This document shows positions 23,519 to 50,000 of a stretch of DNA of 64,000 nucleotides, piece by piece. The notes beneath the pieces were generated by a model that made no database searches, was not told the DNA's origin, and saw only the letters and a list, made by a program, of their open reading frames with translations. Within the stretch, counting starts at the first letter, position 1. Every line of letters begins with the position of its first letter. Made by a program: the position numbers and the translations under genes. This DNA comes from Nemertoderma westbladi (taxonomy: Eukaryota; Animalia; Xenacoelomorpha). Location of the stretch: the NCBI GenBank assembly GCA_032718475.1, contig JAUCBJ010000270.1:1-64000 (forward strand), in the 5' to 3' direction.

Positions 23519-23596
23519 CCGCTCCCAGAAAATGGGATTTAAGTCTATAAAATATAACAAATCACAGTTTCTAAAATATAAAGATACTCTAAACAG

Positions 23597-24930
23597 TTAG
23601 CCTTTCTTACGCAGACGGCGTTTACGCAGTTTTTTGAGGCTAGCAAGAGTCCTTTTCTCTTTGGGGGGAGCCACTTTACTAGGAGGGCCATAACTCCTGG
23701 GTGAAGGGTGCAATATGATTGCATTAAAAGGTTTGGGTTTACGGTCGGTGTCTCGTCCATTTCGATATGCTTCTCCTCGAGCTGATTTTCCTCCGCTTGT
23801 CATGGGATACGTTCGTCCAAAACTCTCGCAGAGAATAGGGTTTTCTAAGCTTGATATCTTCTTTGAGATTCGAGGTTTCCCAATCGAACTGAGATAAGGC
23901 CAATTCGTTTATCGATTGGACTTACTGTTATAACTTACGTTTATCTGAACAAACGCAGGTTTCTTTTTTGATCTTTATAGAATAGCGTTTAACTCGTTTC
24001 GTACAACGCTCTCCTTCACCTTGATGAAGGGTTGTATCGCGTTAAACGGGACGACCATACGGTTGGATAGTGATATTAGGTGTCTGCGTCATAATCCAGC
24101 TAGGTAAGATGGGCGGCTAGCTAGAAATCACTGTCGGAGTGTTACCGATTAATTGTTAGGGTAGCACTAGATCTTGAACAGTGAATACCGTCCGCGAGGA
24201 TCCGCGACACCACCAGGATCGCAGGTCTGAGGTCCAACTAAGGAATGAGGAGGTTTGACCGAGTATTCCGGGACTCTGATCGTAGGTTTACTCTAGGATC
24301 GTTAGAGCCGAGTGAGCATAGGTGATACGTCAAACAAGTTTCGCTCGAAACTCCAGTAAATATAACGAACACAACTGTGTTTAACACAACGTTTCCGTGG
24401 ATGTTTATGTCTTTCCGTTTATTGGCTGGGTCTAGGGCATTTACCGTAATAATACCAAAGACGCACGTCTGGTAGGGGAAACGCGGATGATATTTATTTG
24501 TTGTTACAATGCTTCTATCAAGAATTCCAAATATATGTTGGAGTTACCGCGTTTATTTGTTTCTTTAATGTCTTTTCTTTCGAGCCGATTTCGAATAGAA
24601 TTTTCGCATTCGAATTTCAGTTTATGGTTCCGACTCCGCTGGGCAGGATATATAGTCGACATAGTCCGTATTGTGTAAATTGATAGAATGACCAGTAGTT
24701 AAGAAGCCCATATACGTACCATTACGCTGCGTATATCGAGCGGTGAATTTCTTATAGTCCAACTCACGCGTGAGCTGCTCTTGGGACATTGGCGGTTCGA
24801 TATAACGACCATCATCCTTCGTAGTAGTTGGACTAGTATCACCGCGTATCAAGCTATCAACAAACGTTTGAAAGTAGAATATATCGTTCCCCGATACCAA
24901 GACCATCTTCTATCAACTCCGTCATATCTG
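23597..24930 (-). pseudogene. Fragmented accessory ORF2 of element B
   Basis: YIEPPMSQEQLTRELDYKKFTARYTQRNGTY aligns with D ORF2 YTEPLMSPVEVSERLHYHTFMNRYTNIDGSY. Several frame breaks. Confidence 0.6.
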
Positions 24931-26574
24931 CTATATATGAGTTTATCCATATTATAATGAGTTTATATTTAGGCGAGCGGGCGTCGCTGCCTACCCAATC
25001 AACCCCCGGACAGTACGAGATCCTCAGCGCTGATGTGTCGTCGCCGCTGTACTTTCGCCAACGACGTAGCCGCACAACGACAACGACAACCGGCACAAGT
25101 CACTCAACTGTCCGTCCCAAAGGCTTAGATGTACTTCAGGTTTCCTTGGAGAGTTAGGTTACTTTTACGATTGCGACTAGCTACTGTAAACACACCTTAG
25201 CAGTAACATTCACCTATAAACTCACAAATACCACACACACAACTTGTCACAAATTACACACACTCGGGTCACTTGTCCGTTAGTCAATGCCTTCCAGAAT
25301 GTCACTGTATTATTATGTATCCTTGGATACTATCAGTGCACTATTTATTCCCTATGCTATTCAATGGGACAAGCTTTCTATTGTTCTTTTAACTCAATTC
25401 TAATTCTAGCGTGGTTGTTGCTATGGTGACATTATGCAAAGCTAGCGGTAGAATTAGGGTAATTCCAATGCATACAGATCTGGGATGTTATTTAATAGTA
25501 TTCTTTAATAGTCAATGTTCTGTTTTATACATGACTTTATGAATTTTATCGGCTATTGACTATGTTTGGGAGACTTTCGCACACTCATATGCATAATAAG
25601 ATAAATATCCGCTCCCTTGATCTATTAATTAATGGAATTTTGGGAATGTTATAAATTGCGTAAAATGGCAATTTATTAAATTCATTAAAGACATGAATTT
25701 AAATTTATTCCCTGAAATTTTATTATTTGATAATTAAATGGGCATAATTTGATTCTAGAACATGTCTAGGGACACAAGATCCTTAATTCTATGACAATTG
25801 TCTTTTTTAAGAATATCGGTAAATGCTACAATATCTTAATTGACTAGAATTGTTGAAGGATCTGAATTTTACAGATTTTGACTTATTTGATTTGTAAATA
25901 TTAACTAATTAATATTTGAGATGGGCACCGATTTATTCCAGAACTTGTCTGGGGACGTTAACCACTGATTCTATAATTTGTCTTTCAAGTATATCGGTGG
26001 GTGCCACGATATCTTAATCGACTAGAATTACAGATGGTCAAAGGGTTTAACAGATTTATTTTGCGTTATACGCTACTGTTAAAGGGACATCACGCTACTA
26101 TATGCATTATTTCATATACGGTATGAGAGCAATATCGCACGAAGCAATGTCAGTGTGAAGAGGCAAGTCGTTTCCAAGGTCTACCCAGAGCTTGGTTTAG
26201 CCGAGACACGAGGATCTGAACTTTGCATTCCTAATACTCTGCCTACCAATAATACTTAAATATAGTAGTGGCTTTATTGTACTTTAATAAGTACGGACAT
26301 TTCATCTTACTGTAGTTACGTATTTATAATATAATACGAACAGTAAGGAAAGAGAAAAATAATTATTTCTTCGCCGTCTCACTAAATATAATATAAGTAG
26401 TTACGTACGTAATAAACACGAATATATCGCACTATTCTACAAAATAATCGCTAAATAATATTCTACTAAATTAAATAAAACGATTATAATAAAATTACTT
26501 AGTAATACATACATAAATATAAAAATAATAATATAATATAAAATAATCGAGTCACACGCCCACTCCGAACGATA

Positions 26575-29500
26575 TTAAGTTGGGGAGTTCCTAGATGTCG
26601 GTTGGATTAGGGAAGTGGTCGTGGGAAGAGTTTCTTGCCTTCCATAGTTTCCGGAGAGCTCTCTGTCTCTTTCCAGTAAACATAAACGACCCACTGGGCG
26701 ATTGAGCTGTTGAGTCTCAAAGACTATCCCTGGTTTCTTAAAGTTCCGCCGCATGACGACGAGCTCTACTGATCGCACCAAACCATCGCTCGAGATATAA
26801 GTCTCGATGATACGTCCTGTTTGCCATCGCTTACGTGGGAGATCGGGGTCCACAATAAGCACCATGTCTCCAGCGCTGACGTTTTCTTGCTGCGCAAACC
26901 ACTTAGTTCGAAGTTGTAGAGTGGGCAGGTAATGTTTCTCGAAATGGTCAGCGAAACGACGGGATAGCAACTGCATAAGTTGCCAGGTTCGACGGCAGTA
27001 CTCGTCTCCGTCTGTGATCTCCGATCGTGGGAGCATGGCTACGGGCTTCTTCAGTAGAAAGTGCGCGGGTGTTAGCGCTTCCAGGGAATCAGGATTTGAA
27101 GAGACTGGCATAAGCGGTCTTTCGTTGAGATAGGCGGCGATTTCCTCCATTAACGTCCGCAATAGTTCGTCGGTGAGATAAGCGCGACAAGGCACAATAA
27201 AGTGGAACGCAGTCTTCACGCTCCTAATCAATCTCTCCCAACTTCCTCCCCACCAAGGGGCGTCGGCGGCGTTGAAGGTCCAGCTAGACGCTGTTATCCT
27301 TAGCTGATCGTCCACCTGTCTTTTGTTCCAGTCCTTTACGTAAGCTTGAATTTCGTTGTTGGCGCCAATGAAGTTCGTTCCCTTATCCGATCTCATCGTG
27401 TTACTGGTTCCGAAGCGAGCGATCTGTCGTCGTAAACTCAACACGAAGCTGTTGGTGGATAGATCGTTTACCATATCGAGATGGATAGCTCTACAAGTCA
27501 TACAAACGAAGATGACACACCATCTCTTGACTATAGTCCGGGCACGATATACTTCAATAGGGCCAAATAAATCCACACCGGTATTAGTAAAGGGTGGTTC
27601 ATAGAAGCTTACTCTTTCCCTAGGTAATTCTGCCTCTCGCTGGGTTAAAGGCCTACTGAATGCTTTCCTACAGGGTATGCAGTTCCTAAGAACTTGGTTC
27701 AGAGCCCTACGGGGTTTATAAAAATAGTAGCGAGTTCGAATTTCGCTCAGAACTCGCTCTCTACCAGCATGATACAGTTTGCTATGAACATCTACAATCA
27801 TCTTGATTTGTATGTCAAGATTTCTAATGAGGATGGGAAACTTAGTGTCAAAGGATAACGGGGCGTTGGTGAGCCGACCTCCAACACGTATTAACCCATC
27901 TATCATGGTACTAGAGAAGCGATCCCTTAAGCGCATCTGCGGATTTCTTAACAACAGGAAATACTTATCGGGATCCTCATAGCATTGTAGGAGTCTCAGC
28001 ATCTGTTTGTTGGTTTCATCATGCTCCTGGTAACTGATCTTCTCCTTTAGAAACCTGTTGGATACCTTGTATTGGGGAAGATCTTTAACAACATGGACTC
28101 GTGCAGATGTTGATGGAGCATCATCACTATTGGTCTTCGTTCCGGAGTAACGATGATGAAAACATCGTTTCAAATAGGTAACAGCTTTACAGAGCCGATA
28201 CCAGGAACTGTAGTGACGTATCGCTCTCTGCAAGAGAGGTGAGAGTCCTTGCGAGATATCTGGTATTCCAGATTTCCAATCCTTGTCACGGATTTCTAAG
28301 ACTTCTTTCGTCGTGGCGGTGGGTTTCTGATCCAAAGCATCATCTCCGGAAGTAAATAATACAGATAGATCAACCGCAGGTTTAAACAACTTCGATTTAC
28401 TCGCTCGAGTTTTGGGTTTAACTTTCTCCGCTCCCTTGGCCTGTCTGATCTCTGCTGTTGTGAGATGGGGAGGCCATTCTTCTTCTTCCCTGTAGAGAAA
28501 GTCGGGTCCTCCTAACCATTCGGGAGTATTTACCAATTCCTTTGGAGTCGCTCCTCGGGACGTGATGTCTGCTGGATTAATCGTTCCGGGGCAATGTCTC
28601 CATTGGTCCATCATCGTGCGACTAAGTATGATGGCTACCCTGTTGGTAACGAAGACGCTGAACTGACAGACTTCATTGGTTATATACTCTAACACGAGTA
28701 AAGCGTCGGTCCAATAGACAGTCTTCTCTAATGGATAGTCAATCTGTTCGGTTACATTCCGGCCGATGGCTGTAGCGTATAGAGCCGCTTTTAACTCCGC
28801 TCGAGGAACTTTCAACTTGTTGTTGATTAATGCCTTAGAAGTAACCAAGGCGACTTTGATTCCATCCGGAGTTTCCACTCTTAGGTAGGCTACTATACCG
28901 ATTCCCATATCGCTGGCGTCTCCAAACACATGGAGTTGATAGGAATACGTAGGGAGAACATGACCAAAATATGAACGGGAAATTATAAAATCTTCGATAG
29001 CTGGTAGAGAATCTTCCCATTTCATCCACTTCTTCAATAATTCTCCCTTAAGTGGATCGTCCCATGAGTGGTTTTCAAGCCACATTTGTTGTACCAAACT
29101 ACGAGCAATCAATATAACTGGGCTAATAAATCCCAATGGATCGAAATAAGTGCTCAGTATACTTAAGCAAATCCGTTTGGTTCGAACTGGATTATCTCGC
29201 TGTTTTAGCTGGAAAAACAGGATATCTCGCTCTGTGTCCCATTTCAAGCCGAGTGTCTTGGTCTCTGGCAGATCATCTTTGATCAAATCGAGATCTTTCG
29301 CTCCTCGATCTTCCGCAGGGATCGACTCCAGAAACTCACGGGAGTTGCTGGTGAATTTGGTTAATCGAAATCCACCTCTTTTTAAGCACTCTACCGTTCC
29401 CTTAGCGACCTCAATGGCTTCCTCAACTGATGGGAGGGACTTCAGATTGTCGTCCATGTATATGTCTCTCTTGATGTTGTCGATCACTTCCTTAGAGAAT

Positions 29501-32500
29501 GCCTCTCGGTTGTCCTCTGCAGTAGTACGCACTACCGAACAGGCGTTGGAAGGGCTTGAGATTATCCCAAAGGCCTGGATGGTCATCCAGTACTCCACCG
29601 GTTTCTGGTTGAGATCTCCTTCGGGCCACCACAGAAATCTTAGACTATCTCGATCCCTATCTAGCACCTTGACTTGTAAGAACATGCCTTCTATATCGGA
29701 GGCGAAAGCAATCGAATATTGTCTCAATCTTAAAAGAATTCCCAACAAAGATTGAAGTAAGTTGGGTCCGGGTAACAATTCAGAGTTAAGGGATTGACCC
29801 ATGTAAAGAGCGGAGCCATCAAACACTACTCTCACTTCATTTGGTTTACCGGGTTTAGGAACGTAATGGTGAGTTAAATAATACGTTCTTTCAGTCACAG
29901 GTGTTTCTTCCGGTACCCTCTCCGCGTATCCCTTATTAATAAATTTTTCCAGCTGTGTTTGATACATTGCTTTAGCTGAAGAATTAGCTGTAAGGCGTCG
30001 ATGGAGTTGCGCGATTCTTTTTTCCGCCAGGGGTCTGTTATTGATGAACTTCGGTTCTCTCTTGCGAAAAGGTAAACCGACTTCGTACCTTCCTTGATCT
30101 TTGAGGAAACGTGTAGTTGTCTCTTGGATCTGCTTGGCCCTTTCCTCTTCCACTGATAAAGCCTTATCGTAGGAATTGGGCTCTACCGCCTCTTGCGTAA
30201 AGAATCGTACAGCATGTTCATCTCGAGTCTTAGCATTGCAACGCTCAATGACGTCATTTAACTCGTCGTTGTAAGCTTCTCGTTCAGATGGATAGAGAAG
30301 TTGACATAAGTTCACTTGGTTTTGCCAAGCCTCGTTTTCCTTAAGGAGATCGATGGTATTCTCCTCATCAAAAAGCTGGTGAACGTCGTCGTTATCTGAG
30401 GAGTATGGAATTCCCTCAGTTGAATCGTCTCCTTCACTAGTATCATCTTCCCATTCACTCACCTGACAGACGCGCTCTTGCGGTAGTCTTTCTTTGAGTG
30501 TTCTACGGGAAGGGCCAGTAAAGTACCAACCTACTCTAGTTCTTACCGCATAGGTCTGTAGGGGCTGCGGTTGAGCAGGCCGTTTCTCTAATGTCTCCAG
30601 CGCCTCATGCGCGTTTTGGCCGATGAGTATTTGCACTCCAGGATAATCAGTCTGGAATCGAGGTATGTTAAGATGTTGGATGCTCTCATCCTCGTCCCAA
30701 TTATAAAGGTCTGCTTGAGTAGTAGCGAAGTTCTTTATAGCCACCATTTTCACTGACCTTATGCTGTGTTCTCCTAGTTCGTCTTGTGGGGTGGACAACG
30801 CGCCTACATAATAATCAGCTGTTATTGTAGATTTCCAAACTTGCATGATGCCAGACATGTTGAGCTTAGTTTGGAACTTGAGTTGTCCAGCAAATATATC
30901 TTCGGCTAGCTCTTTATCGATGAATGTTCCTGTACTACCGGAGTCAAGGAGGGCGTTCACTACATAACTCCTCTCAGGTCCGTGAACCCTTACTTGCACC
31001 ACAGGAAACTCTCGGATCCCTACATTGGAAGATGGCTCTTTCCAAGATGGTTGTCGCTCAGAAGTAGTTAGAGTAAAGTCGTTGTCTGTATCTTTTTCAT
31101 ATGTGAGTGCTCGATACACTGCGGTATTTATCATGTAACAGGATTCGTTTTCGTCGGAGAACTCGTCTGTGTAGAATCCTTCCATCTCAGATTGATCAGT
31201 GTCGTTCACATCACTGAATTGGACATGTAGCTCGGAATCACTTACCTGATTCGGACTATTTCGATCGAATTCAGCGTGCAACAAGATATGATGTTTCGCA
31301 CCACACTTTGCACACCTTATGTCAGAGAAACAGGTTCGCCGTTGGTGTCCTTGTCTGAGGCAATTATAACATAACCGCTTATCCCACATGACTTCGCGTC
31401 TCTCTGTTAATGATTTCTTTAGAAATTCATCACACCTATTCAAATGGTGGGTCCCGTCACACAGCGCACATTTCGGTTTGATGTTACTTACCTTATTCTG
31501 AGTCACATTGTGTACACTTGCCTTTTCTTCGGGCTTTCTCACCTGAATTCTCTTGGGAGACGTGGGAGGAGTTTTTCTTACCTGTTCTCTCCTGTCATTT
31601 GCTCGAGACTTGAATTTACTTACCTGATCTTTAGGCATTTTATTGACATAATAAGATCTATCAGTGTCTTTCCCGCTATCTTCTCCTTGAGAAGTCTGGC
31701 TTTCGCCGTCGTCTGTATAACACACTGGTGTTACCTTTCTCCTAGAGACGGGTTTTTCACTTACCTTGTTTTCCGGTGTCTTCTCTCTAGACAGTTTCAG
31801 GAGCTGTAGTTTCACTTCTCCATCTAGGAATGACATGAGATCAGCCATGGTAGGGTCTCGTCGTTGTTGTTCCATCATATATAGTACTTTCTTATCCCAG
31901 CGTGTGCCTACCCCACCTTTCGGTAAAGTAGAAGCCACAGCTCCAATGACCATAGAACTTTGGTATTCGTGAGACTTACCTAACCAATCTAATTGTCTAC
32001 AGATCTCTTGAATCTCATCGGAAAACTCTATTATCCCACTGCTGATGAACTTTCTGGGCGCTACTAATTTTGCATATAAATACTTAGCGATATTATTCCT
32101 ATTACCATACCTGATGTTTAGTGTGTCCCAAACTTGTCTTAATCCGTCTGGATGTCCAATAAACTTTAACGCCATTAACTTGGGAGATCCTTCCAAGCAC
32201 TCGATGAGGAATCTAAGTTTCTCTCCATTAGATAGCACAGAGTTCTGTATGTTATCTTTGTAATATTCATTAAAAGGTAACCATTTCATCTCATCTCCAT
32301 TGAACTTGACGATCTCTCCCACCTTTACCGCTTGCCGGGCTTCGGTTCTAGCCATTTGACGCGTAAAACTTTCTTGGGCCATCGTGTTATTTAATATCGA
32401 GTTATCGGTATATAAATTTCTCGGATTATGATCAGGTCTATAGGGAATGTCATTATCAACAGGTCTATAATTACCCTTAATAGGGTTCACTATAGGAGTT

Positions 32501-34662
32501 TCTACTTCGCTAGCAGTATATATGCGTGTAGGCTCCACACCTTGCGCATGCGATACTTCAGACCTAACAGGTTGACACATTGTTACAGAGGGTGGTGGTA
32601 TACCCTTTTGGGTATTTACTAATTTATCGCGTTCGAGCGCGATACTTTGCTGCACTTCTTGCAACTCTAGCCTACTTTCCCTTACTGTGCCCTTGAATTG
32701 CTGGACAGTCTCCTGCATCTGCCCGAGCAGGATATCCATCCCCCGCCGTCTCTCGTCCACCCATTCGACCGCCGAAGCGGGAGTCGCCAACGTTGTAGCG
32801 AGCGGACGAGGGACAACGGGCGACAAATCAGGAATATTTCGCTCGGGGTCCAGGACCTGAACTGTCTCCTGGGCAGTTCTACGGGGCACAGGTAGCTTAG
32901 TGCTATGCAGAGGGAATTTAGAGGTAACTTCAGGGAGTACAGGTGTGTCTATCACCGAAGGGGTGATTTCGAGAACAGGCCTAATTATTTCAGGCTCATC
33001 TACTATAGTAGGGAGTCTTTCTATTTTAATTATTTGGTCTGTGGGTTCTGTACTACCTAAGTTGGTGTTATTTAGTTGCCTTCTAACAGCTGGAGGCAAA
33101 TCAGGCAATTTCTGACGGTGGAATGTTCTTTTACGTCTACTTAGACGAGATCTATTTCCTTTGCCTTCAGTATCGGTGGTATCACCTTCCTCAGATGATG
33201 TATATCCCTGTCGTTTGGGAGTAGATCGATTCATCATCTGCATATTACTAGCTGTTAACTGTTTATTTATGCAGTCTTGATTCTCCTGAATGTTTTCCAA
33301 TTCTAATTGGGTGGTTTCCTCAGCCGCTCTCCGTTCTGCTTCTACCACTGCCTCCGCCACTTTTCTTTCCGCTTCGGCCGCTGCCTTTGCCTCTGCCGCT
33401 GCCACTTTTGCCTCTGCCGCTGCCTCTGCCGCTGCCGCTTTTCTTTCTGCTTCTGCAGCTGCCACTGCTGCTGCTACTGCCGCTGCCTTTCTGTCTTCTA
33501 TACGTTTTTTCTTTACTTGTTCTTCTTGGACTCTGGTGATGCGGAGTTGTTCATCAAATTTAGCCTGGTTCGCAGCCCTCATTTCCACATCGATGGCATC
33601 CAACACAAGCTTGGTTCCTTCACTATTAGGGCTAAGTCCCTCTAACCTTCTCCTCAACTCGTCATCACCTAAAAAACGTTGATAGTCTGACAGATAGAAG
33701 TCAATGGCATCCCTCTTATGCGGTTTCTCTGCCGTCGCTTCACTTTCCACTTGGGAAAAAGTAGCGTCTGTTGATTCTCCATGGGTTGAGCGCTCCTCTA
33801 GCTGAGCTTTCCACTGAGCTGTTCCTTGAACCTGGAGACTCACCCTTTGAAACCAAGTCTTTACGGCAACTTGCAACGACGTGTCTTGCCTTCGTTTAGA
33901 AGCCTCCTCAAAGGCCGATAATATTAGCCTGATTCGTAGAATTCTTTCTCTTACTTGATAAAGCAGCAATCCCTGCTCTTGAGGTCCTTGAGGTTGATGA
34001 AACAGTTGTTCTTTTAATCGCTCTATAGAGCTGAAGAATCCCTGTGCGTATCCGGCTGCGGACCTCTTCCACACAGCTGGATCGATGGTTTCCTTGGCTA
34101 CTCCCATCCGGTGTATGTCTTCCCAGGCAGCTTCTGATAAATCAAACGGGAGTCCGGGTCCGGGGAAGTTCCATTGCGACTCGACAATAGACTTCAGTTC
34201 TTCACTCGTGTATCCCGCATAACTATCTCTAGTTGACCGTTGACTTCTCGCCCAATCGATCTGGTGTTCTTCCACCGCGATCAATAACCTAGTGAGTACG
34301 GCTGCAGGAAGGATGAGAAGGGGATCCGTATAAACCGCATCCGTCATCTCTGCTCCGCGCTCGGGTGTCAGCTCTACAGTATCCTCACTACTGGAGCTGT
34401 TGGGCCGTTGAGAAGTAAGTTCTTGCCTCTCGGGTTGTTGCTGTTCCGCTGCTTCTTGGTCCCGCTTGACCTGAGCTCGGGTGCCTATGATAGACCTACG
34501 ATGTTGGACCAGCCTAGGTTCTTTTATTACTACTGGAGGGATGACTTTCCTCACAGTGGGAGGTGAACTGAACTTACGACCAGACGGTTGTACGTCTCTA
34601 TCTGAGTCGCAGATAGTTACATCTAATAAACTGTCTGACAGGTTCTGCTTAGTATCAGACAT
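26575..34662 (-). CDS. BEL/Pao Gag-Pol polyprotein, 2695 aa, with a long N-terminal extension
   Basis: KFNGDEMKW Gag, three zinc knuckles, LLDSGS protease, IYMDD RT, VFGDAS RNase H, GVDLFGP/SDKGTNF/GGSWERL integrase. Confidence 0.97.
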   Translation of the reverse strand: MSDTKQNLSDSLLDVTICDSDRDVQPSGRKFSSPPTVRKVIPPVVIKEPRLVQHRRSIIGTRAQVKRDQEAAEQQQPERQELTSQRPNSSSSEDTVELTPERGAEMTDAVYTDPLLILPAAVLTRLLIAVEEHQIDWARSQRSTRDSYAGYTSEELKSIVESQWNFPGPGLPFDLSEAAWEDIHRMGVAKETIDPAVWKRSAAGYAQGFFSSIERLKEQLFHQPQGPQEQGLLLYQVRERILRIRLILSAFEEASKRRQDTSLQVAVKTWFQRVSLQVQGTAQWKAQLEERSTHGESTDATFSQVESEATAEKPHKRDAIDFYLSDYQRFLGDDELRRRLEGLSPNSEGTKLVLDAIDVEMRAANQAKFDEQLRITRVQEEQVKKKRIEDRKAAAVAAAVAAAEAERKAAAAEAAAEAKVAAAEAKAAAEAERKVAEAVVEAERRAAEETTQLELENIQENQDCINKQLTASNMQMMNRSTPKRQGYTSSEEGDTTDTEGKGNRSRLSRRKRTFHRQKLPDLPPAVRRQLNNTNLGSTEPTDQIIKIERLPTIVDEPEIIRPVLEITPSVIDTPVLPEVTSKFPLHSTKLPVPRRTAQETVQVLDPERNIPDLSPVVPRPLATTLATPASAVEWVDERRRGMDILLGQMQETVQQFKGTVRESRLELQEVQQSIALERDKLVNTQKGIPPPSVTMCQPVRSEVSHAQGVEPTRIYTASEVETPIVNPIKGNYRPVDNDIPYRPDHNPRNLYTDNSILNNTMAQESFTRQMARTEARQAVKVGEIVKFNGDEMKWLPFNEYYKDNIQNSVLSNGEKLRFLIECLEGSPKLMALKFIGHPDGLRQVWDTLNIRYGNRNNIAKYLYAKLVAPRKFISSGIIEFSDEIQEICRQLDWLGKSHEYQSSMVIGAVASTLPKGGVGTRWDKKVLYMMEQQRRDPTMADLMSFLDGEVKLQLLKLSREKTPENKVSEKPVSRRKVTPVCYTDDGESQTSQGEDSGKDTDRSYYVNKMPKDQVSKFKSRANDRREQVRKTPPTSPKRIQVRKPEEKASVHNVTQNKVSNIKPKCALCDGTHHLNRCDEFLKKSLTERREVMWDKRLCYNCLRQGHQRRTCFSDIRCAKCGAKHHILLHAEFDRNSPNQVSDSELHVQFSDVNDTDQSEMEGFYTDEFSDENESCYMINTAVYRALTYEKDTDNDFTLTTSERQPSWKEPSSNVGIREFPVVQVRVHGPERSYVVNALLDSGSTGTFIDKELAEDIFAGQLKFQTKLNMSGIMQVWKSTITADYYVGALSTPQDELGEHSIRSVKMVAIKNFATTQADLYNWDEDESIQHLNIPRFQTDYPGVQILIGQNAHEALETLEKRPAQPQPLQTYAVRTRVGWYFTGPSRRTLKERLPQERVCQVSEWEDDTSEGDDSTEGIPYSSDNDDVHQLFDEENTIDLLKENEAWQNQVNLCQLLYPSEREAYNDELNDVIERCNAKTRDEHAVRFFTQEAVEPNSYDKALSVEEERAKQIQETTTRFLKDQGRYEVGLPFRKREPKFINNRPLAEKRIAQLHRRLTANSSAKAMYQTQLEKFINKGYAERVPEETPVTERTYYLTHHYVPKPGKPNEVRVVFDGSALYMGQSLNSELLPGPNLLQSLLGILLRLRQYSIAFASDIEGMFLQVKVLDRDRDSLRFLWWPEGDLNQKPVEYWMTIQAFGIISSPSNACSVVRTTAEDNREAFSKEVIDNIKRDIYMDDNLKSLPSVEEAIEVAKGTVECLKRGGFRLTKFTSNSREFLESIPAEDRGAKDLDLIKDDLPETKTLGLKWDTERDILFFQLKQRDNPVRTKRICLSILSTYFDPLGFISPVILIARSLVQQMWLENHSWDDPLKGELLKKWMKWEDSLPAIEDFIISRSYFGHVLPTYSYQLHVFGDASDMGIGIVAYLRVETPDGIKVALVTSKALINNKLKVPRAELKAALYATAIGRNVTEQIDYPLEKTVYWTDALLVLEYITNEVCQFSVFVTNRVAIILSRTMMDQWRHCPGTINPADITSRGATPKELVNTPEWLGGPDFLYREEEEWPPHLTTAEIRQAKGAEKVKPKTRASKSKLFKPAVDLSVLFTSGDDALDQKPTATTKEVLEIRDKDWKSGIPDISQGLSPLLQRAIRHYSSWYRLCKAVTYLKRCFHHRYSGTKTNSDDAPSTSARVHVVKDLPQYKVSNRFLKEKISYQEHDETNKQMLRLLQCYEDPDKYFLLLRNPQMRLRDRFSSTMIDGLIRVGGRLTNAPLSFDTKFPILIRNLDIQIKMIVDVHSKLYHAGRERVLSEIRTRYYFYKPRRALNQVLRNCIPCRKAFSRPLTQREAELPRERVSFYEPPFTNTGVDLFGPIEVYRARTIVKRWCVIFVCMTCRAIHLDMVNDLSTNSFVLSLRRQIARFGTSNTMRSDKGTNFIGANNEIQAYVKDWNKRQVDDQLRITASSWTFNAADAPWWGGSWERLIRSVKTAFHFIVPCRAYLTDELLRTLMEEIAAYLNERPLMPVSSNPDSLEALTPAHFLLKKPVAMLPRSEITDGDEYCRRTWQLMQLLSRRFADHFEKHYLPTLQLRTKWFAQQENVSAGDMVLIVDPDLPRKRWQTGRIIETYISSDGLVRSVELVVMRRNFKKPGIVFETQQLNRPVGRLCLLERDRELSGNYGRQETLPTTTSLIQPTSRNSPT

Positions 34663-36039
34663 GACTATGTATACCGTTGAATGTCTACTGCTGTATTACA
34701 GTCTGAGCAAGTCTAGTAATTCAGTATTAACTGCTAGCCTAGTAATTAATTACCGATACTGCTACTCAGTGTAGCGTGATATATATATAATATATTAGAA
34801 TACCGGTATACTTATAGTATATATAACTATATAAGTATTATTACAGACTAGGTTTATCACAGAATACCGGTATAATTTTAGCACAAATATATATAAATAT
34901 ATAATAGGCCTATCGGAATACCGGTATACAGCTTACAGTTTGTAGTATATATAATTCTGGAATAGAATTAATTACAAGTACCGGTATAATTTCAGCCTAG
35001 ATTTATAGAAATAAAGATAATAGGCCTATCGTAAATACCGGTATATCAATTATTTTAAATAATTGAACTTCTGAATTTCAGGGTTACTTTGTTACTTTAC
35101 TTACTTTATTACCGTTATTTGAGCAGTAGTCCAACTGATATGGAGACCTAATTGTTATATGGTAGGCCTACTATTTATAAATCGTTAGATTTGATTTATA
35201 ATATATATATACCCGTTTTAATGGGTTTTGTCAATGTTTGAAATAAATGTTATTATTTCTAGGGGTAATCACTACACAAAGCGGTATGCTTTCAGTGAAG
35301 TGTTACGTACAGGACACTAAAACAAATAATTCTAATTTACCTAAGTTACTTAATACTACAAATTACGTACAATTCGGGTGAGATTACAATCTCTAAATAA
35401 ACACAAAAATTTACAAAAAAACCCAAAATACGAATTTTTAGGGTAATTTTACAAGAAGTCTACTAACCAGCCTAACAAAGGGTTAGAAATCTGGTTATTA
35501 CAACGGACAGGGTACTACGGTATTTGAAATAATAAGTAGTAGTAAATACACTGCGTTGTCCAGATAGGAAAATACCACCGCCTGACGACCTATAGCCGTA
35601 TCGCTATAGGTTCTACGTTATGTATCACGGAGTGTTCCTACCTAGAAGTTAATAGAGCTAATCGAACGTGCCTATCAACCACTTTACAACACAAATATAA
35701 TGCCTACTAATTACTTTCGGAAAGCACTGTACACTAAACCCTAAATTAGGTACGAGTACTTGTATAACATATAATCTGTAGTTAAATATACTTGAACAGC
35801 TAAAAGAACCACGGCATCTGCTGGAGTGACCGATGCACAAAATCACCAGTCTTTACCTACACCAAGCAGCCCGTGTAGTACCGGGGTTAATTTAACTATA
35901 GCGGTATGTATAACAAACACAATTACTGTAGGAACAAACTTGGGGAATGAATGTTGCGAATAATCGCATAAACTCTGAATAATAAATATTACGCTACGCG
36001 TACAAACTACTCAAACAAAATGCAGACCAAACACTGACA

Positions 36040-36548
36040 GACTACTATCAAGCCTAAACAAACTACGGTATATGCAGACTCCGAAATAATTAGGTAGTAT
36101 GCGTTCTAACCCAGTAGTACGACTTATTCTTTAGTTGGGGGTTTACCTTACAGCATTCGCTGCCCCTACTTCCTAACCGTTCTTTATCGGACAAGTGATC
36201 TACACACGCTGCAATCCGTTCAGACCCAATAACAGCCAGACAACTATCCAGCCTACAAATTATCTAAATAAAATTATACGCTACCCGTACAGACTTACAC
36301 AAACAAAGTACAGACTAAACGATGGCAGACTACTCTCAAGCCTAAATAAACTACAGGACATGCAGACTCCGAAATGATTAGGGAGTATGCGTTCTAACCC
36401 AGTAGTACGACTTATTCTTTAGTTGGGGGTTTACCTTACAGCATTCGCTGCCCCTACTTCCTAACCGTACTTAATCGGACAGGTGATCTACACACACTGC
36501 AATCTGTTCAGACTTAACAGCAATCAGACAACAGCTCAGCCTACAAAT
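36040..36548. repeat. Tandem duplication (period about 288 bp) in the 5' leader of B
   Basis: Block tgcagactccgaaat...cctacttcctaaccgt present at about 36072 and about 36361. Confidence 0.9.
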
Positions 36549-36906
36549 TGTCTGTACAATCTGATCAGGTTTACACGCCTTCTGTTCAATACTAGCCTAC
36601 AAACAAATAAAACTGACAGAAATAAGTAAGCTCCAAAAGAAACAAGGGGTGTACAGTCCCTAATCTCTTAAACAGCCTACCGGTATACAACAATCCAATC
36701 GAATAATACTAATGTACTTATACTGGAAGTACCGGTTAGGACAGTTGGGCCTACGGACCTACAGAAGTACCGGTTCTGGCAGTTGGACCTACGGACCTAC
36801 AGCAGTACCGGTTCTGGCGGTTGGGCCTACTGACCTACTGAAGTACCGTTCAGGTTTACCGGTTGACCGGTACTTTCAACTTTATTGCTTACTGCAATAA
36901 AGAAGC

Positions 36907-36918
36907 TATATCCTTTAA
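36907..36918 (-). promoter_or_regulatory. Non-tRNA primer-binding site of B (TTAAAGGATATA)
   Basis: Directly abuts the 5' LTR end and is the exact reverse complement of the LTR site at 37682-37693. Confidence 0.8.
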
Positions 36919-38134
36919 TGTTCGCGCTTTTAGACCTTTGGCAGTTTAACCCACCAAATTAGGATGTCTTCTAGATAATAAATCACTTTTAGTCTATGAC
37001 AAGTATTTAATTCACTACACTAGTCGAAACCAATCTGTGCGCGATCATTCACCCGCTGGATATTCCCAGGAGATTGGGTTCGACGGTTTAATTTTATTGC
37101 TATGTAAGCCTAATGTATTATTCGACTGACAGTATTATATAATCTCTGACAATATTATTCACCTTCGGGGAATATTAACAGTTCCTTTAGGACGTGGCGC
37201 TTTATCTATATAAACAGAGTTATGACTTAAACTACTCACAACGATATGGCTTAATTATAATTCACATATATGGCGCATTCTTTAGGAATTGCTTCTTTAA
37301 CAGACTCACTCATACACAATGCTGCACAATACTGCACACTAATCTGCCAATCTTCACTGATTTTAGTCACATATAAAAGGAACACAAACTGACTCATGTA
37401 GGGTCTATCAAATAACATTAGATTCACTTCAAACCACTTTAACATAAATCACAATCGTTATTGGTAACCTTTCTCTCTTACCTTCGGTATATCAAGAATA
37501 TTGGGTTTTCGGGGTTATTTCTCGTTATTCCAATATAATAATTCATCAACCAATATAATGAATAACCGACAACAAATAGCAGTACACAGTATCGATTGAG
37601 CAGGTAATTTTAGCAGTTTCAGCAGTTATTACAAGCCGTGTGTCAGCAGTCAGTGTATTCCCAGATCAGTGATTCCATGAGTTAAAGGATATATGTCCTT
37701 ATAATTAAACCTACTAGTGTAAGACTAAAAACTGAAAACACGGAGGTGCCAAAAGCCGGTTCTTAGGCTCTGGGCAAAAACATAACACTGAACTACTGAG
37801 TTTCTGTATATACCTCCAACACAGAGACAACAAACGCTCTGATTGGTCAACCTGAACAACGAGAGAACAAAGAAACAAAGAAACGTCGACGTGGCAATAT
37901 CAGCTGCTAGCCGTCGTCATGGTAGCGACACTGTTTTCAAAGTATCCAGCTATTGCGTCACGAGATTGTGGATTATGTCCTCTAAAGTACAAATACAGTA
38001 CAAATACATAAGAAATGACTTTTATGTCCTCTAAAACACCAGTACAGCAAGGACACGGCCTTTTTATGCCTGGCAAACCAACTACAGAGTACTTTAAGGG
38101 AAAATAACCGGCTAATTACGCAAAAGCTTTTACA
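36919..38134 (-). repeat. 5' LTR of element B
   Basis: Direct repeat of 22303-23518. Confidence 0.97.
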
Positions 38135-38139
38135 GCAGT

Positions 38140-41640: not shown

Positions 41641-42439
41641 TTCGGTAGTTGTAAGTCAAGTAAAATGTGAGTGTCAAAGTATCAAATTTACCGTATTTAT
41701 ATCTAAACGGTACTAATTACAGTCATATAAAATTAGCCTACCGGCCGATTTTATAGCAGATGGATAAAATTAGCCTATGCGGCCAATTTTACAGCAAATA
41801 AATGTCACGGAATAAGTATATAATAAAATTAGCCTAGCGGCCAATTTTATAACAAATAAATCGGATAACGATATGCGTTATCAAAAAGGTAAATTAAATA
41901 CAATAATACGGACTAATTCAGCAATGAACAAAGAAATCGTACAGAATGCATAAATACTTGAGACAGTGGAACCCACAATAATTTTAACTAATACGGTAAT
42001 GCCTAACTTATTTATGCAACCTTTCAAACTCACCCACTCCAATAATTCTCCAGAAAAACAGATTCCCAGATACAAACCGGATGTGAACCTTTCCGTTTCC
42101 AGCGTTGCGGACGAAGTGCGATTTTCCCAACCAAAGTTGTTGGGTTATCTATCTCCCAAACTTGCTAAACACGGTCTTGCTCTCGTTACAGTCTAGAAAT
42201 GAGTTCTGAATCCTGAAAAACAAAAGAGTTAGGTTTTACTTTTACGAAAATTTTGTACCGGTACAATATGGTATTTAAACCCTTTTAAACACCGGTATTC
42301 AATTCCAAATATTTTACACGCGGTTCAAATCAAATTTTATTTCAAAAAATTAGCACTTAGGTAATCAAATATAAATTTTACCTCAAAATACAAAAATTTT
42401 CAAATAACTTTAGTCCTACCGAACCGTAGTTCAGTAAAA

Positions 42440-42450
42440 CATATTCCTAC
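42440..42450 (-). promoter_or_regulatory. Non-tRNA primer-binding site of C (GTAGGAATATG)
   Basis: Directly abuts the 5' LTR end and is the exact reverse complement of the LTR site at 43489-43499. Confidence 0.8.
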
Positions 42451-44242
42451 TATGCGAAGAGACAGTAACAATACCTGCAATATCTTACTGTAAAGTTTGT
42501 GAATCAAATCATAATCAGACCTTCTAACCAAAACAGTAAACTCCAAGTAAGCGAATATATATATATTGCAGTATTGGTCTCTTATAACCGGTGAGGCAGA
42601 AAACAGTCTACGAACAGACAAACTTCGATAAAACAAAATCCCGCGCAGCGAATCCTAAAATCAGGCTGACTCACTGACGGACTAAGGGGCTCGTATACTT
42701 TGCCGTGGTGTGATTTATATGGTTGGGCGAAAGGGACGCTAGCTAGGTGCAGAGATTTGGAGATGTCTAACTAGCGGGCAAAGTGCAGTACGGACAAAAG
42801 TTAATTTTATATATTTTGAGGTGTAAATAATTTCTAACGCGCGTGTGTTAATCCTGAACCGTCAAGATCAGTTTTGCTCCTTCATATATATAATTACTGG
42901 GTACGGTGTGCATTTTACGAATATTCTAATTTTGTAACTTGTAGGTCCAATACTCACGAATAATAAGGCTCCTTCCCCTCTTGCGTATTTCCAGGACTCA
43001 AATTCGGGCATAAGGTTAATGCTACGCCCAGAATTCGGCAATTTTTAATTTACCAGGTCCCTAATACTAAGAAGAAATGTGTTAGTTTACTACAGTAGGC
43101 GTACGGTTACTAATAGCTAGCCTGGCGTCCTATCTAGAATTTTGGTTACCTAGGTGGGCTTGGTAACTTCCTATCAGGATGTCGGCGGGGACACGGTAGA
43201 TGTTAGTATCCCTAAATAGCCTCAATTTATTTTGCACCTAGTCGTAAACTGCCCTACCGCCTGAACGGTACAATCCTAATTCAGGTGAAACACAGTAATC
43301 CTCCTAGCCTACAAGTTCTAATGCAATAGACACCGTTGTACTACAAATAGTCACAGACGCACCTGTACTTAGCAAGAGTTAGGCGTACAGTTTGCTGCAC
43401 CCTACCAATGTGCATGCCTTGTACCGGTGTGCCTACGTCCTATCTGCGTACTAGTATCTCTGCCTGAGCTCTCCTCTCCTCTCCCCCCGTAGGAATATGA
43501 AGGTCTACTGCGGTTTTTTCCTGAATTAAAACAGTACAATTCCTAGATGTAATTTTAGGCATACAGCGTGTCACTACCTCTACCTTCGATCTTTGGTCTT
43601 ATACTTAGGTAGCAAGGCATCGAACGCTGTCTAACCTTTCAGGCGATGGGCGAATAACTAAGAGTGATATTGCGTGTTGTCTCCTGTCTACATTCCTTAG
43701 ATGTTCCCGTTCATTGCTGTGGCCCGATGTTTAGCCAGCCATCCTGTCCCTCAGTTGAGTTCACCGTGGTGAAGCATAGTAAAACAGATAGAAAAGGGCA
43801 GATGTGACAAGTATTTCTAACTTTTATTACAAAATCAAACAATAACTATTATACAATAAACAATGTAATCTGAAATAAAGGTTTTTAAAGATAGCTATTG
43901 GTCCAGCGAATATACAACTTGTACGACATTGGTTACAATCTAATAATTACAATCTCGTTGGTTAATCTTACTTCGAGCAAATGCAATTAATTTGTAGCGG
44001 TCAATTTAAATGAGTTGAAATTCTGCACAAAAAACAATTCGCACCTACTAGGATTCGAACTCAATACACACTACATATAATTTCCAACGCTCTACCGACT
44101 GAGCTACTGAACCACTTGACTAATCATCGTACAAATAGATATAGCAAATACAAATGAGGACTTAATGTAATCTTTTAACAAAGTTAATTCGAATAAAATA
44201 AAATTTTGAAAATCCACGGCGTTTAGAGAATATAATTCTATA
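42451..44242 (-). repeat. 5' LTR of element C (1792 bp)
   Basis: Near-identical to 22181-22302 plus 38140-39652. Sense-strand termini TATAGAA...CGCATA. Confidence 0.9.
44035..44113 (-). ncRNA. tRNA-like Pol III cassette inside the U3 region of the C LTR
   Basis: A box TAGCTCAGTCGG, B box GAGTTCGAATCC, T-run terminator. The anticodon arm is not canonical. Confidence 0.55.
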
Positions 44243-47069
44243 CTGCCACACTATGGGACTACTTTTATTTTTCATCAAAATTATAATTCCCTGCTTATGA
44301 GATTTTAACTTTTTTTAGGTTTGGTAGTGTTCATCTATAGTTGTTTCACCAACAGCCCGAATTTCGTAGGATTTCATTGGACGATTACAAAAATATAGTG
44401 GGTGGGCCGAATCGCCCCCCCCCCCCCCCCCCCCCCCCCCCAGTGGTGCTAATGGTCAAAACACCCCAGTGGTAATAGGGTTAAGCCCGTTACGAGTCAT
44501 GTAACTAGCAGGACTTGTGATATTTCACCTTGCTGTGTTGCATCACTTGCTTATTGCATTGCATCATTAACTTGCCGTATGTATTCAATCTTATTGTTAT
44601 AGTTATTATTATATTATTATATTATTGCTGTACCTTGTTGATGAATATACAAGACCAGAGATCACACCAACTTGATTTTCACACGGTTAGTGCTGACTGC
44701 ACCCTGTCTGTAATAGATTCGGTGTGCGTCCATAGTACTGCAATATTATTCCCCAACTAGTAACTATAATCTACTGATCCTATAATGTATGCAGCATGAG
44801 TGAACTGTGCACTTACCACGCACTAGGTCCAACATAGTGTCCTACCTGTAATATATATAAGTCAAACGTACATTTACCCGCCAACAACACAACATAACGG
44901 AATGGTTTACACGTAAATATTACTTTATTCCCTTGAAGCAGTTTATAGTGCCGAAGCTATATACTTACAGTAATTGATTGTACATTCAGACCAGATATAT
45001 ATATTAGATAATATATGTATACATAAACATTCGTGAGTGTTCCTGCTACGCGGCAGGTACCCCAAGGCACTTGATAGCACTCATAAGAGTTACAAACAAA
45101 CTCACTTTGTGGCGGATGTGGGGTTAGCCTCCCATAAAAGCCTTGACAGTGAAATATCACTTTCCAACACTGCCCCCAAGACAGTGTTCACCCCCCCCCC
45201 CCCTCGTACAATTAATTACATTAACATCTTGAACACCAATGTGCGCTGTGGTAGTGGACTATAATAAAATACTGCAGTTTTATTATACCTACTTTGCTCA
45301 GCAGTTTACGTGTAAGTAAACTACTTCAATTACGTTTAGAACTAGTGTTGTGTTATTTGCACATGTTTTTGTTTTGCTTGATATTGAGAACTGAATGCTT
45401 TATCGACGAATTGTTAAGGGATTTGAATCATTACATTATCCACGAGGTGTAAATTCTTCGAACGTGTTGAGCTGTGAGACCTACGTTCCCCGCGGGAGGT
45501 GTAAATCATAAGCTGGCGGCACGTGAAGCGTAAAGTTGCAAAACAGGGAGAACGTTATTGACAAAAGATAATATAGACAATCCTGCGATCATTTGGTGTG
45601 ATACTGATTGTTTGGTTTGATGTGTTATAGTATTATAATAACATTTGTGAAATCTGTTGTGCGGCATTGTGCGAGTGCAACTATTGCAGGTGCATTTCCG
45701 TGCGAATTGTTGATTGAGTCAGAGAGTTTACTTGTGTGACTGTGGTTTAATTTGACATTATTAGTCGTACGTTTGCGAAGTCAGTAGAAGGCCAAACACC
45801 CGAGGGAGTGTATAGGCAATCACTGCGTGTGAAACGGCTAATTACAGATAAATTACTACATTCATTACCATAGCTTAATAATTTAGTCAGCGTTTGTATG
45901 GTATGTTACATACGCTGTTATCAAAATAGTTTTACCCTTCCGGTTTTTGTATTAAAGTAACTAAGCGATTTAAGTAACTTGGTATTTTATTGTTTTACTG
46001 TACATTCGCCCTACACTTACATTTTGTTGTTTATTATTATAAACTTGTAACATAGTGTTACAACCCCCAAATATCGTAAGTACGTTCTATTATCTACGTA
46101 CAGAAATAATTAATTATTACATCTTTCTTTAGGCCATTGAACTGTTTATTTAACAGGCAGACACAGGCACGATATTTGACATATATTAATCCTTGTATTT
46201 AGTTCAAGGGAACCAACATCCTACGCTAATTTCATTCTGAACATAACCATTTGTTTGGATTACAGGCGACTTCAGACATACATATTTATTCATAACAATA
46301 TTATTTGCAGAAATAATCTCGGCAGTATTTGTGCTTAGGATTTGAAATAAGCCTTGCACATTAATTAGGTGCTCGTGATTTATTGCGACTTGCAACTTAA
46401 TTTCATCCCAAGGCGATTTACATCCTGCCCCACAACGACATACCATTCCAGACAATTTGTCGCTGAGTGCTTCGACTCAGCCATATACTTACTATAAACC
46501 ACGAGACTAAACTCCTTTGTTTGACCTACTCAGTCGCGACATACAAATTCTCCTACCATTATTAGTGCTGTTTACTTCCATTGAATGTTGAGACGTGATA
46601 CACCCCCACAGCCGACAACATACAATAGCATGGCTCAACATTTCCCATACCTATTGATTCTGTGTGACTTAATTGCTTACCCAGTTCGTGGAATTCAGAG
46701 TCAACCCCTTCCTATTAAATAGTAGTCCATAGCAATGTTCTTAGGATAGTATCACTGAATTGACAGTAACGAACGACATCCACTCGGATTAGAGTAGACA
46801 GCGACTACTAGCGGTGAAACAAGAATTGTAAAAGCACTTTAACGATACTTGTTACTCCCATTCTCTTTGAAAGGCGTTTCTTCGTTTATTTGAGATAAAG
46901 CCACCCAGTGGGAGCAGAGAGTATTACATTCTTATTAATAGCCAAATTATTCATTTCTCTAGGTGGCGCAATTATAATAACTTCTTTGGTGATTAAATAT
47001 TTATTTTGCAGGATAAATACGTAGTTAACACGTCTTTATAGTGTGCATAGATTACATTAACTTGACACC

Positions 47070-50000
47070 ATGTCAGAGTCAGATATTGACACTGAACCAT
47101 TTGTTCAACACCCACCGGTCACAGCTGCCCCTCATACTAACATTCCCCCTTCCGTTGACCAGGTTGCACCACCTGTCCCCAGCAAGAAATCTTGGGACAG
47201 GTCCCACATCAGAACTAGACTATTTACAGGAGGGATTGTGGATGATATAAATGTAGATCCACCCATAGTTAGTGTTGTACAAACTGGAGTGAGCTCACCA
47301 TCACTACTAGTAATGAACATATCCCCCATTATGTTCGCCCCCTCACCCAACAGCAATGAGGAATTACACCCCCCGATTGATAACACCCTTTCGCCGAACA
47401 TTACAGATGAAACAATTCCTGTTCACCTGCAAGCAAGACTAGCTTACTTGCTGGAGGAGATCGGCAGTTACCGGGAAAGGGTGGCAACCAGAACTGTAGC
47501 TGCTGAACAGGAGGTTTATGGGGAAGAATTACATCACTTAATAAATCTACATTATGCCCACCCGGAACTTCGTAAGTTCTTCAGGTTCATTGATATGGTG
47601 TGGGCAGACCTATACAAACTAAAGGTTCCCCAGGTTCCATGCGGCACGGAAGAGCTGTCCGCTATAGTTTATGACCATGTAGCTGACTTCAATCGGCATA
47701 TAGGAACCCTCACACATGAGCTACAGACGGTGCAGCCTGACCCTAGGACGAACCCAGCTGCATATTTTAAGGTTAAGGAACTAGTTTGCGGCTAGTTTTA
47801 TCCGCCTTCCGGGAAGTATCTAGTAGACATCAAGATGCGGAGCTCGCTGCCATAGATGGCAGACAGTTAGCGGAAGTGGCAGTAATAGCCGGGAAGGCAC
47901 TCGCCCTTGAAAGGCTACATGGACCGACCATTCCCCCAGGTGTGGACATAGCCTGTTCCGGTACCGTAGCACTGAGCCATCAGCGTACAGACTCAGAGGA
48001 TTCCGGTGAAGGTGAGGACATGGATGCGATATCCCATTATCTGCAGTCTTATATAGCTGTGGTAGGAGAGACCGAACTTCGTAAGAGGTTAAAGGGTTTG
48101 GCCCCATCCAGCCCTGAATCAGCAGCAGTCCTAGATGAGATAGACGCTGAGGGCGATCTGCGGGCACAGATAGAGGGACATAATGCTGTTAAGGAAATAT
48201 TAGAAATGGAATTGCAGTTAAACGCAATCCAGATACGTAATAAAGCCGAACCGCGGGAAAACAAGCGCATGGAAGCTGATATAACTTTACGAAACTAAAT
48301 AGCACTAAAAATATTTAGTGAAAATCAGTGTAAGGAAAGGTCAGGCTCAACCAGAGGACGAGACTGGCCGATTAGAGGGACTTATGCTTTGTCGGTTGAA
48401 GGAAACTCCACCGACGCTAGTGAAAGTGGTAACCACTCTCAACGCTGACGAAAGAGAGCTGTTAGAGTGGCGCTGTCGGACCTGCCTCCATATAATAGGG
48501 ACGGGATACCCCCAAAGCAGACGGATTTAGATCATCTGAGACCACTGGATTCGCGGCCCCCCCTGGGTAGGTTACGGGAGGAAGATGAGCCAAATGATCC
48601 CGGGTTCGAGATCTATATAGATCCGCGGGAATGGAAACCACCTCAGTTGGTTGCAGTCCCATTGCGCGGTACATCAGCCGAGCCGATCAATCCAGCAGTA
48701 GTTCCACACTCGACCATGACAGCAACCCCCTACCGAAATAGAGATGTTGTACCACCAGTAGGGGCACCAATTGTAACTAAAGAAATACCCAATGAAGCCC
48801 CAAACTCCCATATTATCTCTCGTACAGCTTGTCTAGAATGCCCCAGACCTAACTACCTGTCTAGTACCTTGGCCAGGACAAAGGAGAAAAGAATGTCATT
48901 TGGCACTGGAATATCCCCAATCGCCAGCCTGGCAGAAAATCCCAAAGTATCACATACATTACCCCATAGTAACGAAGGAGGAAACAATAATGATTGGACA
49001 TCTAGGGATGAACTAAATCCCTGCTCGACGATATATTACAACCGTCAAAACCAACTGGATGATAGGCACCTGGCGCCCAGATCAGCCCACTTAGCCGCAA
49101 AGGCGTCGGCGCCAGTGGGGACCCGGCATCCAGGACCAGGAATGCTGTTATCATCCGGCAGACGGATATCAGCCCCCCCTGATGGGCAAAGGGAAGCCTA
49201 CCCCAGAAGTGGAGTCAGGTTTGTGCCAGGCATCCCAGGTGAAGTATTTCCCTCCTTGTGGTGACCCTCCTTCACCTTCAGAGGCTTATGCACCCCTGTT
49301 AGACCCCAGCCTACATTCGAACATTCGAACAGACAACATACGAAGTGGGGCTTCTCTTGCGGTCCTCCCAACCCAACCTATTTAATAACAAGATGCTTGC
49401 GCATAAACGCATTTTACAACTGGAAAGGTGTCTCACCGCCAACTCGACAGCTCATTGGTTATATAAGGAGCAAATGACCAAGTTCATAAGCAAGGGATAT
49501 GCGGAACTGGTCCCACCAGACACCCCCAAGACTGACCGGACATACTACCTTACTCACCATTATGTCGAACAGAAAGACAAACCAGGACGTATTAGGGTAG
49601 TGTTCGAAGGTTCAGCTAAGTACCAAGGACAATCCCTAAACTCGGAACTATTACCCGGACCCAACTTGTTGCAGTTTCTACACAGAATATTAATGCACAT
49701 GCGACAATATGCCGTCGCCTTCTCTTCAGACATAGAGGGTATGTTCCTGCAAGTGAAAGCATTAGATATTGACCGGGACAGCATGCGTTTCTTGTGGTGG
49801 ACAGAAGGAGACTTAAATTCTGATCCAGTAGAGTATCGCATGACCATTCAAGCGTTCGGTATCATTTCCAGCCCATCGAACTCATGTTCAGTGCTACATC
49901 GAACAGCTGATGACCATCGGGATGAATTTCCACCATCAGTCACAGATAATATCAAAAGGGATTTTTACATGGACGATAACTTGAAATCAGCCCCGACAGT

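Follow-up and report, generated by a model that had tools for sequence, protein, structure and literature searches.

A BEL/Pao retrotransposon of Nemertoderma westbladi that likely primes from its own LTR, and marine relatives in which the predicted primer is mostly split by a putative intron

The window analyzed is a 64,000-nucleotide stretch of the Nemertoderma westbladi contig JAUCBJ010000270.1 (positions 1 to 64,000). It contains a long LTR retrotransposon, termed element B, which lies on the minus strand and has the following parts.

22303..38134, minus strand: element B, a full-length BEL/Pao LTR retrotransposon of 15,832 bp (from the LTR pair, target duplication and Pfam)
36919..38134, minus strand: 5′ LTR of B, 1216 bp, TG...CA, 7 mismatches to the 3′ LTR
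22303..23518, minus strand: 3′ LTR of B, 1216 bp, from self-comparison of the window
26575..34695, minus strand: single gag-pol frame of B, 2706 aa from stop to stop
23519..23526, minus strand: short purine-rich tract adjoining the 3′ LTR, candidate plus-strand primer

The LTR copies of B are 99.4% alike in the self-comparison (7 differences in 1216 bp), and a perfect 5-bp target duplication flanks the element (38135-38139 and 22298-22302). This duplication and the comparison of the two copies define where the LTRs end. Element B, described as intact and young in the first-pass annotation, looks intact, with near-identical LTRs, the target duplication and a single 2706-aa frame. The frame displays a triple Cys-His box, an LLDSG protease, a YMDD reverse transcriptase, a DAS RNase H and an integrase, and it has Pfam matches to Peptidase_A17 (1e-35), DUF1759, DUF5641 and Integrase_H2C2. 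Read from the translation, the Gag Cys-His boxes are CX2CX3HX4C, CX2CX4HX4C and CX2CX3HX4H, which agrees with the BEL/Pao pattern in the accessible text of PMC554778. The homologues of B are BEL/Pao polyproteins of 38-45% identity; of 638 in total, the 120 listed all carry PF05380, and the named hosts are echinoderms, corals and anemones, molluscs, a nemertean and a fish.

Element B belongs to BEL/Pao. Its Pol and Gag families are of the Pao type with the order PR-RT-RH-IN that characterizes BEL/Pao (Belpaoviridae), and the TG...CA LTRs, short target duplication and purine tract are likewise those of this family. The triple Cys-His box, the LLDSG protease (as in Sinbad), the domain order and the TG...CA LTRs are shared with described BEL/Pao elements, as far as the accessible text of PMC554778 goes. 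Membership in the Tf1/sushi group was considered and rejected, as Pol is that of BEL/Pao and not that of a Ty3/Gypsy chromovirus.

Other features of B were observed beside the coding frame. Approximately 3 kb of non-coding sequence follows pol (23519-26574, minus strand), and the 2.2 kb leader (34663-36906, minus strand) has a 288-bp tandem repeat and many ACCGGT-type motifs. Gag (33290-34695, minus strand) has a long N-terminal extension that contains an alanine-rich coiled coil; the extension is partly common to the neighbouring element C (33% over 120 aa), whereas the other loci lack it in the part that matches.

The sequences relevant to priming are at the LTR boundary and within the LTRs.

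36907..36918, minus strand: primer-binding position of B, 12 bases, directly after the LTR, no TGG
37682..37693, minus strand: predicted self-primer in the 5′ LTR, exactly complementary to the primer-binding position
23066..23077, minus strand: the identical 12 bases in the 3′ LTR

The 5′ LTR of B ends in ...GCGAACA and is followed with zero spacer by TTAAAGGATATA (36918-36907). The exact complement of these 12 bases is present only at 37682-37693 and 23066-23077, i.e. at LTR position 442, where the five bases before it are GGACA in the 5′ copy and GGGCA in the 3′ copy. The first-pass annotation had given this LTR end, without spacer and without TGG, and an exact 12-nt reverse complement about 440 nt into the LTR. 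The former can be read directly at 36919 and 36918-36907, and the latter was found in both copies. It also placed the site downstream of a CCAAT box; the box is real (37842-37846), though it lies 149 bases upstream of the site.

According to the ICTV profile, BEL/Pao elements are primed by host tRNA from an 18-base site for tRNA-Arg or tRNA-Gly and have genomes of 4.2-10 kb (PMC8742986). The first post-LTR bases of B contain no TGG and thus no such 18-base site for the tRNA-Arg or tRNA-Gly 3′ end. Element B differs in this from the described Belpaoviridae (Tas, Pao, BEL, Sinbad, Suzu), and also in its length of 15.8 kb, which is beyond the 4.2-10 kb range. As the family is defined by Pol phylogeny, the missing tRNA site marks B as a variant and does not exclude it from BEL/Pao. 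No tRNA genes were found within the window, and an Rfam search of positions 34000-47500 gave a single match, below threshold.

A published sequence criterion for predicted self-primers is a match of at least 10 bases that starts 0-5 bases after the LTR (accessible text of PMC6317226). Element B has 12 bases at offset 0. A chance match has to be considered, given an A+T content of 83% at the B site and the length of the LTR. Against this, a match of at least 12 bases at offsets 0-5 was obtained in 1 of 3000 dinucleotide shuffles of the B LTR, and over the 13,360 positions of the internal region a 12-base LTR complement starts solely at the first post-LTR base.

Folding of the RNA was predicted for fragments that contain both sites.

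36937..36958, minus strand: predicted U5 hairpin just upstream of the LTR end of B (fold)
36880..36902, minus strand: 9-bp hairpin directly after the primer-binding position, which competes with a possible outer helix (fold)
37696..37702, minus strand: possible outer helix strand, a weak prediction, with predicted partner 36897-36903 past a small internal loop (duplex fold)

For B RNAs with a start 0-16 bases upstream of the site and an end 30-100 bases past it, the best fold contains the helix between the two 12-base sites (p 0.82-0.95). The helix is lost at starts 20 or 41 bases upstream (p 0.01 and 0.09), and in both B and C it is lost once 300 bases are added downstream (p 0.0). Since the helix depends on the fragment ends, the fold is compatible with a self-priming model and is no proof of it. 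The sole difference between the LTRs that falls within the U5 hairpin (LTR position 1182) changes a U-G pair to C-G.

Two other elements of the window, C and A, also show self-complementary sites.

47061..52742, plus strand: element C, a broken BEL/Pao gag-pol in several pieces
44517..44528, plus strand: 12-base site of C, complementary to 45149-45160
45149..45160, plus strand: putative primer-binding position of C after ...GACA, no TGG (LTR end deduced)
43489..43499, minus strand: 11-base site of A, complementary to 42440-42450 (10 of 3000 shuffles as good)
42440..42450, minus strand: putative primer-binding position of A, 2 bases after ...CGCA, no TGG

Element C has 64-65% identity to B in Pol. 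Its binding position is 1.9 kb upstream of the C frame, with the complement 632 bases earlier. The 12-mers of C and B differ at 7 of 12 letters, and their leaders cannot be aligned. As for B, the best folds of A and C contain the helix, with p 0.91-1.0 for C at starts 0-20 bases upstream. No second LTR of C is present within the window and its LTR end was taken from the match itself; the C match, of modest odds on its own and to that extent consistent with chance, is therefore modest support.

Element A spans 38135-44084 and 22180-22302 and consists of two 99% copies of approximately 1.6 kb each, which surround a 695-aa alanine-rich coiled-coil frame. Element B is inserted into one of these copies. 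The A protein gives no BLASTP match to B and has no homologue among 3419 candidates. Element A is therefore not assigned to BEL/Pao. Its repeat begins within a SINE-like stretch and has no target duplication, and so resembles a duplication more than a regular pair of LTRs. The self-match of A, 11 bases at offset 2, is at most suggestive. By eye, 43800-44110 (minus strand) shows motifs like box A and box B of a tRNA-derived SINE, with no ARAGORN or Rfam match.

The window has several further features. A Gypsy-like LTR element at 14322-18950 (plus strand) displays DUF7047, RT and integrase, and has a 5-bp target duplication; no TGG and no complement to its own LTR (3-5 bases) were found after the LTR. 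Downstream of C and on the same strand, 54301-58000 (plus strand) has several broken frames, among them 402 and 232 aa, with no Pfam matches; these may be additional genes of C. Units of 38 bp and 40 bp make up tandem arrays at 8935-9114 and 9664-14300, and fragments at 62021-63823 resemble, by eye, non-LTR reverse transcriptases on both strands.

Relatives of B were collected from scans as 101 loci (80 of 553 were kept in the metagenome scan), with 11 added later. The 5′-LTR end can be defined from two LTR copies in 20 of the 101, and the main counts use these 20. TGG is absent in 18, and the two loci with TGG sites show no self-match (score 4-5). Three of the 20 have a contiguous LTR match like that of B, 10-11 bases long, which 0-3 of 400 shuffles equalled in each case. 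In most of the remaining loci the contiguous match is merely 6-9 bases and is found directly after a pyrimidine tract and AG. In thirteen of the 20 (11 after merging of near-identical pairs) a pairing of 11-15 bases arises only once a predicted GT-AG intron of the LTR, which has consensus splice sites, is removed. In addition, L057 pairs across a predicted intron after correction of its end, and L008 does so with one mismatch.

The search for split primers imposed only GT and AG. In a cross-pairing control 15 of 506 combinations matched, 8 of them between close relatives. With only GT imposed, the donors are GTRAG or GTACGT in 12 of 13 loci, compared with 31 of 660 GT sites in 11 search spaces; at the thirteenth, L002, an equally long match is available with a GTGAGT donor. 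The primer of the marine relatives examined is predicted to be mostly split by an intron. A splice-built primer was also sought in A, B and C, where the best candidates reach 7-9 bases and are equalled by 29-82 of 100 shuffles; these elements are of the contiguous form.

Overall, strict tests are passed by 16 of the 18 non-TGG relatives. Together with the shuffles and the internal positions of B, this effectively refutes a chance origin of the match. A blind scan of loci that reach the Gag region gave further cases, nearly all of them 0-4 bases after CA; a few off-position matches were set aside. Additional contiguous cases (L035, L046, L093, L099) were chosen by position among 25 loci without a defined end, and in that contiguous scan L007, L033, L044 and others were discarded as chance-level or internal hairpin matches. 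The split rows number 19, with 17 distinct primers and introns of 75-451 bases. When these are taken with 6 contiguous rows, the paired length is 10-13 in 24 of 25. Among the spliced models, 12 of 13 have the helix in their best fold (p 0.58-0.99), as do 5 of 7 contiguous relatives; it is not formed in the predicted fold of L084, L005 and L046.

The first-pass annotation had proposed covariation of binding site and LTR as a test of the family, and the pairing is indeed kept with different letters. L002 and L003 share the flanking letters before the donor and differ at 2 primer positions, and their binding sites show 2 corresponding changes. Between L026 and L092 there is a difference at 1 primer position, again with a matching change. 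The annotation had also suggested a tRNA-independent BEL lineage. Pairing without TGG is present in B, but this is not one odd lineage; it is the rule among the marine relatives examined.

In both trees (quick and FastTree, constructed without the named reference elements Sinbad/Sailor, Suzu, Tas, Flow and Dan), contiguous forms occur at no fewer than three places among the split forms. B and C form a long branch, unsure in its place, outside a well-supported clade that contains most self-pairing relatives. Because of this position the relatives are indirect support for B. L076 has a TGG-type site at 56-80 and groups near split-primer elements in both trees, possibly a switch between tRNA and own primer. 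BEL/Pao sequences L001-L021 and L102-L112 are in contigs filed as bacterial (marine MAGs, a Wolbachia chromosome) and are likely host DNA in those assemblies. Among viral contigs there were 94 and 48 pattern matches, none of which is a relative.

The variety of primers bears on whether a host RNA could be the primer. The primer might be a fragment of a host tRNA or another small RNA of the host, with the LTR pairing serving to hide or expose the site or acting in packaging or translation. The ICTV profile states host-tRNA priming for the family (PMC8742986), and half-tRNA priming without TGG is known in Copia groups (accessible text of PMC6317226). In half-tRNA priming of the Osser and Bianca type, the binding site pairs with an internal cut point of the tRNA. 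But the 17 distinct primers of the 19 spliced rows and those of the 6 contiguous rows would each need their own host RNA, half-tRNA sites are conserved within a lineage while the present sites are not, and the loci that do have TGG lack LTR pairing. We consider a host primer improbable.

Even less probable, in our assessment, is that the pairing is a relic or a DNA-level feature, such as the remnant of a former fold-back duplication or a help in strand transfer, with no role in priming. The pairings are strict Watson-Crick as searched, and primer copying alone could keep both sites matched. Where the match arises only through joining at a splice junction, however, it cannot be formed by the DNA, and no other primer site is evident after the LTR. 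As the pairing is not due to chance, TGG is missing and the pairing is kept with different letters in the relatives, self-priming of B and its relatives is likely from the sequence evidence.

The position of the transcript start bears on how this would occur. TATA-like boxes of B are at 37805-37812 and 37698-37703, approximately 115 and 10 bases upstream of the site. At these distances they do not indicate a start at 37693-37695 and would set it approximately 90 bases upstream or 10 downstream of the site. Of the 25 rows, only 4 have a TATA-like box 26-32 bases upstream, while a pyrimidine-purine step is at the 5′ edge of the primer in 20 and an A is two bases earlier in 18. Contigs of run X1, which are possibly from DNA and cannot show starts, cover 30 of 30 bins including U3, with lower depth above 37525.

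The outer helix has p=0.19 for B alone (duplex fold). A loose energy test of helix extension gave 1 of 25 rows at p<=0.05, with a median of 0.28, and none on the other side. A tighter test, with settings picked post hoc, gave 8.84 versus 4.15 (0 of 5000 permutations); a score of at least 8 was reached by 2 of 5 held-out loci. An outer helix past a 2-4 base bulge, as defined after the fact, is enriched across the family. This weak second helix suggests that the RNA of B starts some bases upstream of 37693, and together with the edge motifs it hints that transcripts begin slightly upstream of the core.

For B, we favour on balance priming by its own RNA through a fold-back within one molecule. 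The transcript would start at 37693 or up to approximately 16 bases before it, and its 5′ end would pair with 36907-36918 of the same molecule, closing a loop of 763 bases. The RNase H of the element would then likely cut just past the helix, which would leave a free 3′ end to prime minus-strand DNA, as in Tf1. B and C would have a contiguous primer, whereas most relatives would have the same 11-15 bases only after removal of the LTR intron. Since the primer is not copied into strong-stop DNA, new LTRs would obtain their primer region from the 3′ copy, and an intron within the primer would therefore survive only if the 3′ copy is unspliced. Either the 5′ copy alone would be spliced, or the full-length RNA would be unspliced and a short spliced LTR transcript would prime it from outside. 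The same-molecule model leaves splicing of the 5′ copy with retention of the 3′ copy unexplained.

The second of these options leads to an alternative in which the full-length RNA is primed by RNA of the element that belongs to a different molecule, either a short LTR transcript or the 3′ copy of the LTR. In intron-bearing families the short transcript would be spliced and polyadenylated; in B it would be approximately 600 bases long. A candidate signal in B is the following.

37093..37098, minus strand: first AATAAA downstream of the predicted primer of B (595 bases), candidate poly(A) signal

A[AT]TAAA is found 1-166 bases after the primer in 18 of the 19 spliced rows. Splicing could turn on this poly(A) site, with the full-length RNA left unspliced, so that the intron is inherited in both LTRs; this fits L003, L042, L045 and L091, in which both LTRs contain it. 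Element B would then need no transcript start at the site. A poly(A) signal in R is to be expected in any LTR, however, and does not discriminate, and B, A and C have no A[AT]TAAA within 200 bases after the primer. The same-molecule helix is readily predicted, and Tf1 acts within one molecule (accessible text of PMC7175516). Priming from another molecule appears unlikely, though it has the inherited introns in its favour.

Self-priming has been described or predicted for Tf1/sushi, Tcn1 and Copia TAR elements (PMC6317226, PMC4600332, PMC5341516, PMC6934838, in their accessible text), and the primer pairing of Tf1 is 11 bases (PMC7175516, likewise), close to the paired length in the rows above. 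Like Tf1, Tf2, Tj1 and the Tf1/sushi group, B has no tRNA site and its first post-LTR bases, 11-12 in these elements, are complementary to the LTR; the predicted fold-back and RNase H cut are also as in Tf1 (PMC7175516, PMC4600332, PMC5341516, as far as their accessible text goes). A U5 hairpin is predicted before the site in B, and a reference title in this literature names a U5 stem-loop requirement. In contrast to Tf1, B is BEL/Pao and not a chromovirus, its loop is 763 bases, and its start and cut are predicted. Many relatives of B would need splicing to build the primer, which was not found for Tf1 in the accessible text. For the plant TAR elements (Houba, Osr-1) of Copia and for Tcn1 of Gypsy, self-priming is predicted by the same sequence criterion as for B, but these are of other superfamilies and hosts, and no split primer was found in the accessible text (PMC6317226).

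Cer7 of C. elegans, a BEL-like element, reportedly encodes its own primer RNA, tRNA-like and outside the LTR. If this account is right, Cer7 resembles B as a BEL/Pao element with an element-encoded primer, but differs in that the primer is a separate RNA from outside the LTR.

No report of a self-primed BEL/Pao element was found in the open-access literature searched, and no report of a primer made by splicing was found there. In the accessible main text of the BEL/Pao surveys PMC3118150, PMC554778, PMC6238403 and PMC8556966 the term PBS is absent, and the accessible text of PMC3601003, PMC7472051 and PMC11042837 has nothing on BEL priming. Self-priming is thus a known mechanism, while its presence across BEL/Pao and the splice-built primer are new as far as searched.

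It is fairly probable that a large part of marine-animal BEL/Pao has dropped tRNA priming for a primer from its own RNA, and that in most families the spliceosome joins two LTR exons into this primer, so that splicing switches on reverse transcription. Element B would belong to a deep lineage with the uninterrupted form, which recurs in at least three places among the intron-bearing families. Element B represents the uninterrupted form and has near-identical LTRs and an open frame, so host RNA and cDNA should directly reveal where its transcript starts and what primes it. If B and its relatives self-prime, self-priming reaches a third LTR superfamily and many animal hosts. Such elements would escape the control that tRNA fragments exert, and would be missed or mis-scored by annotation tools built to require a tRNA site. 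The split form would represent a primer made by splicing, and raises the question of how an intron in R survives reverse transcription.
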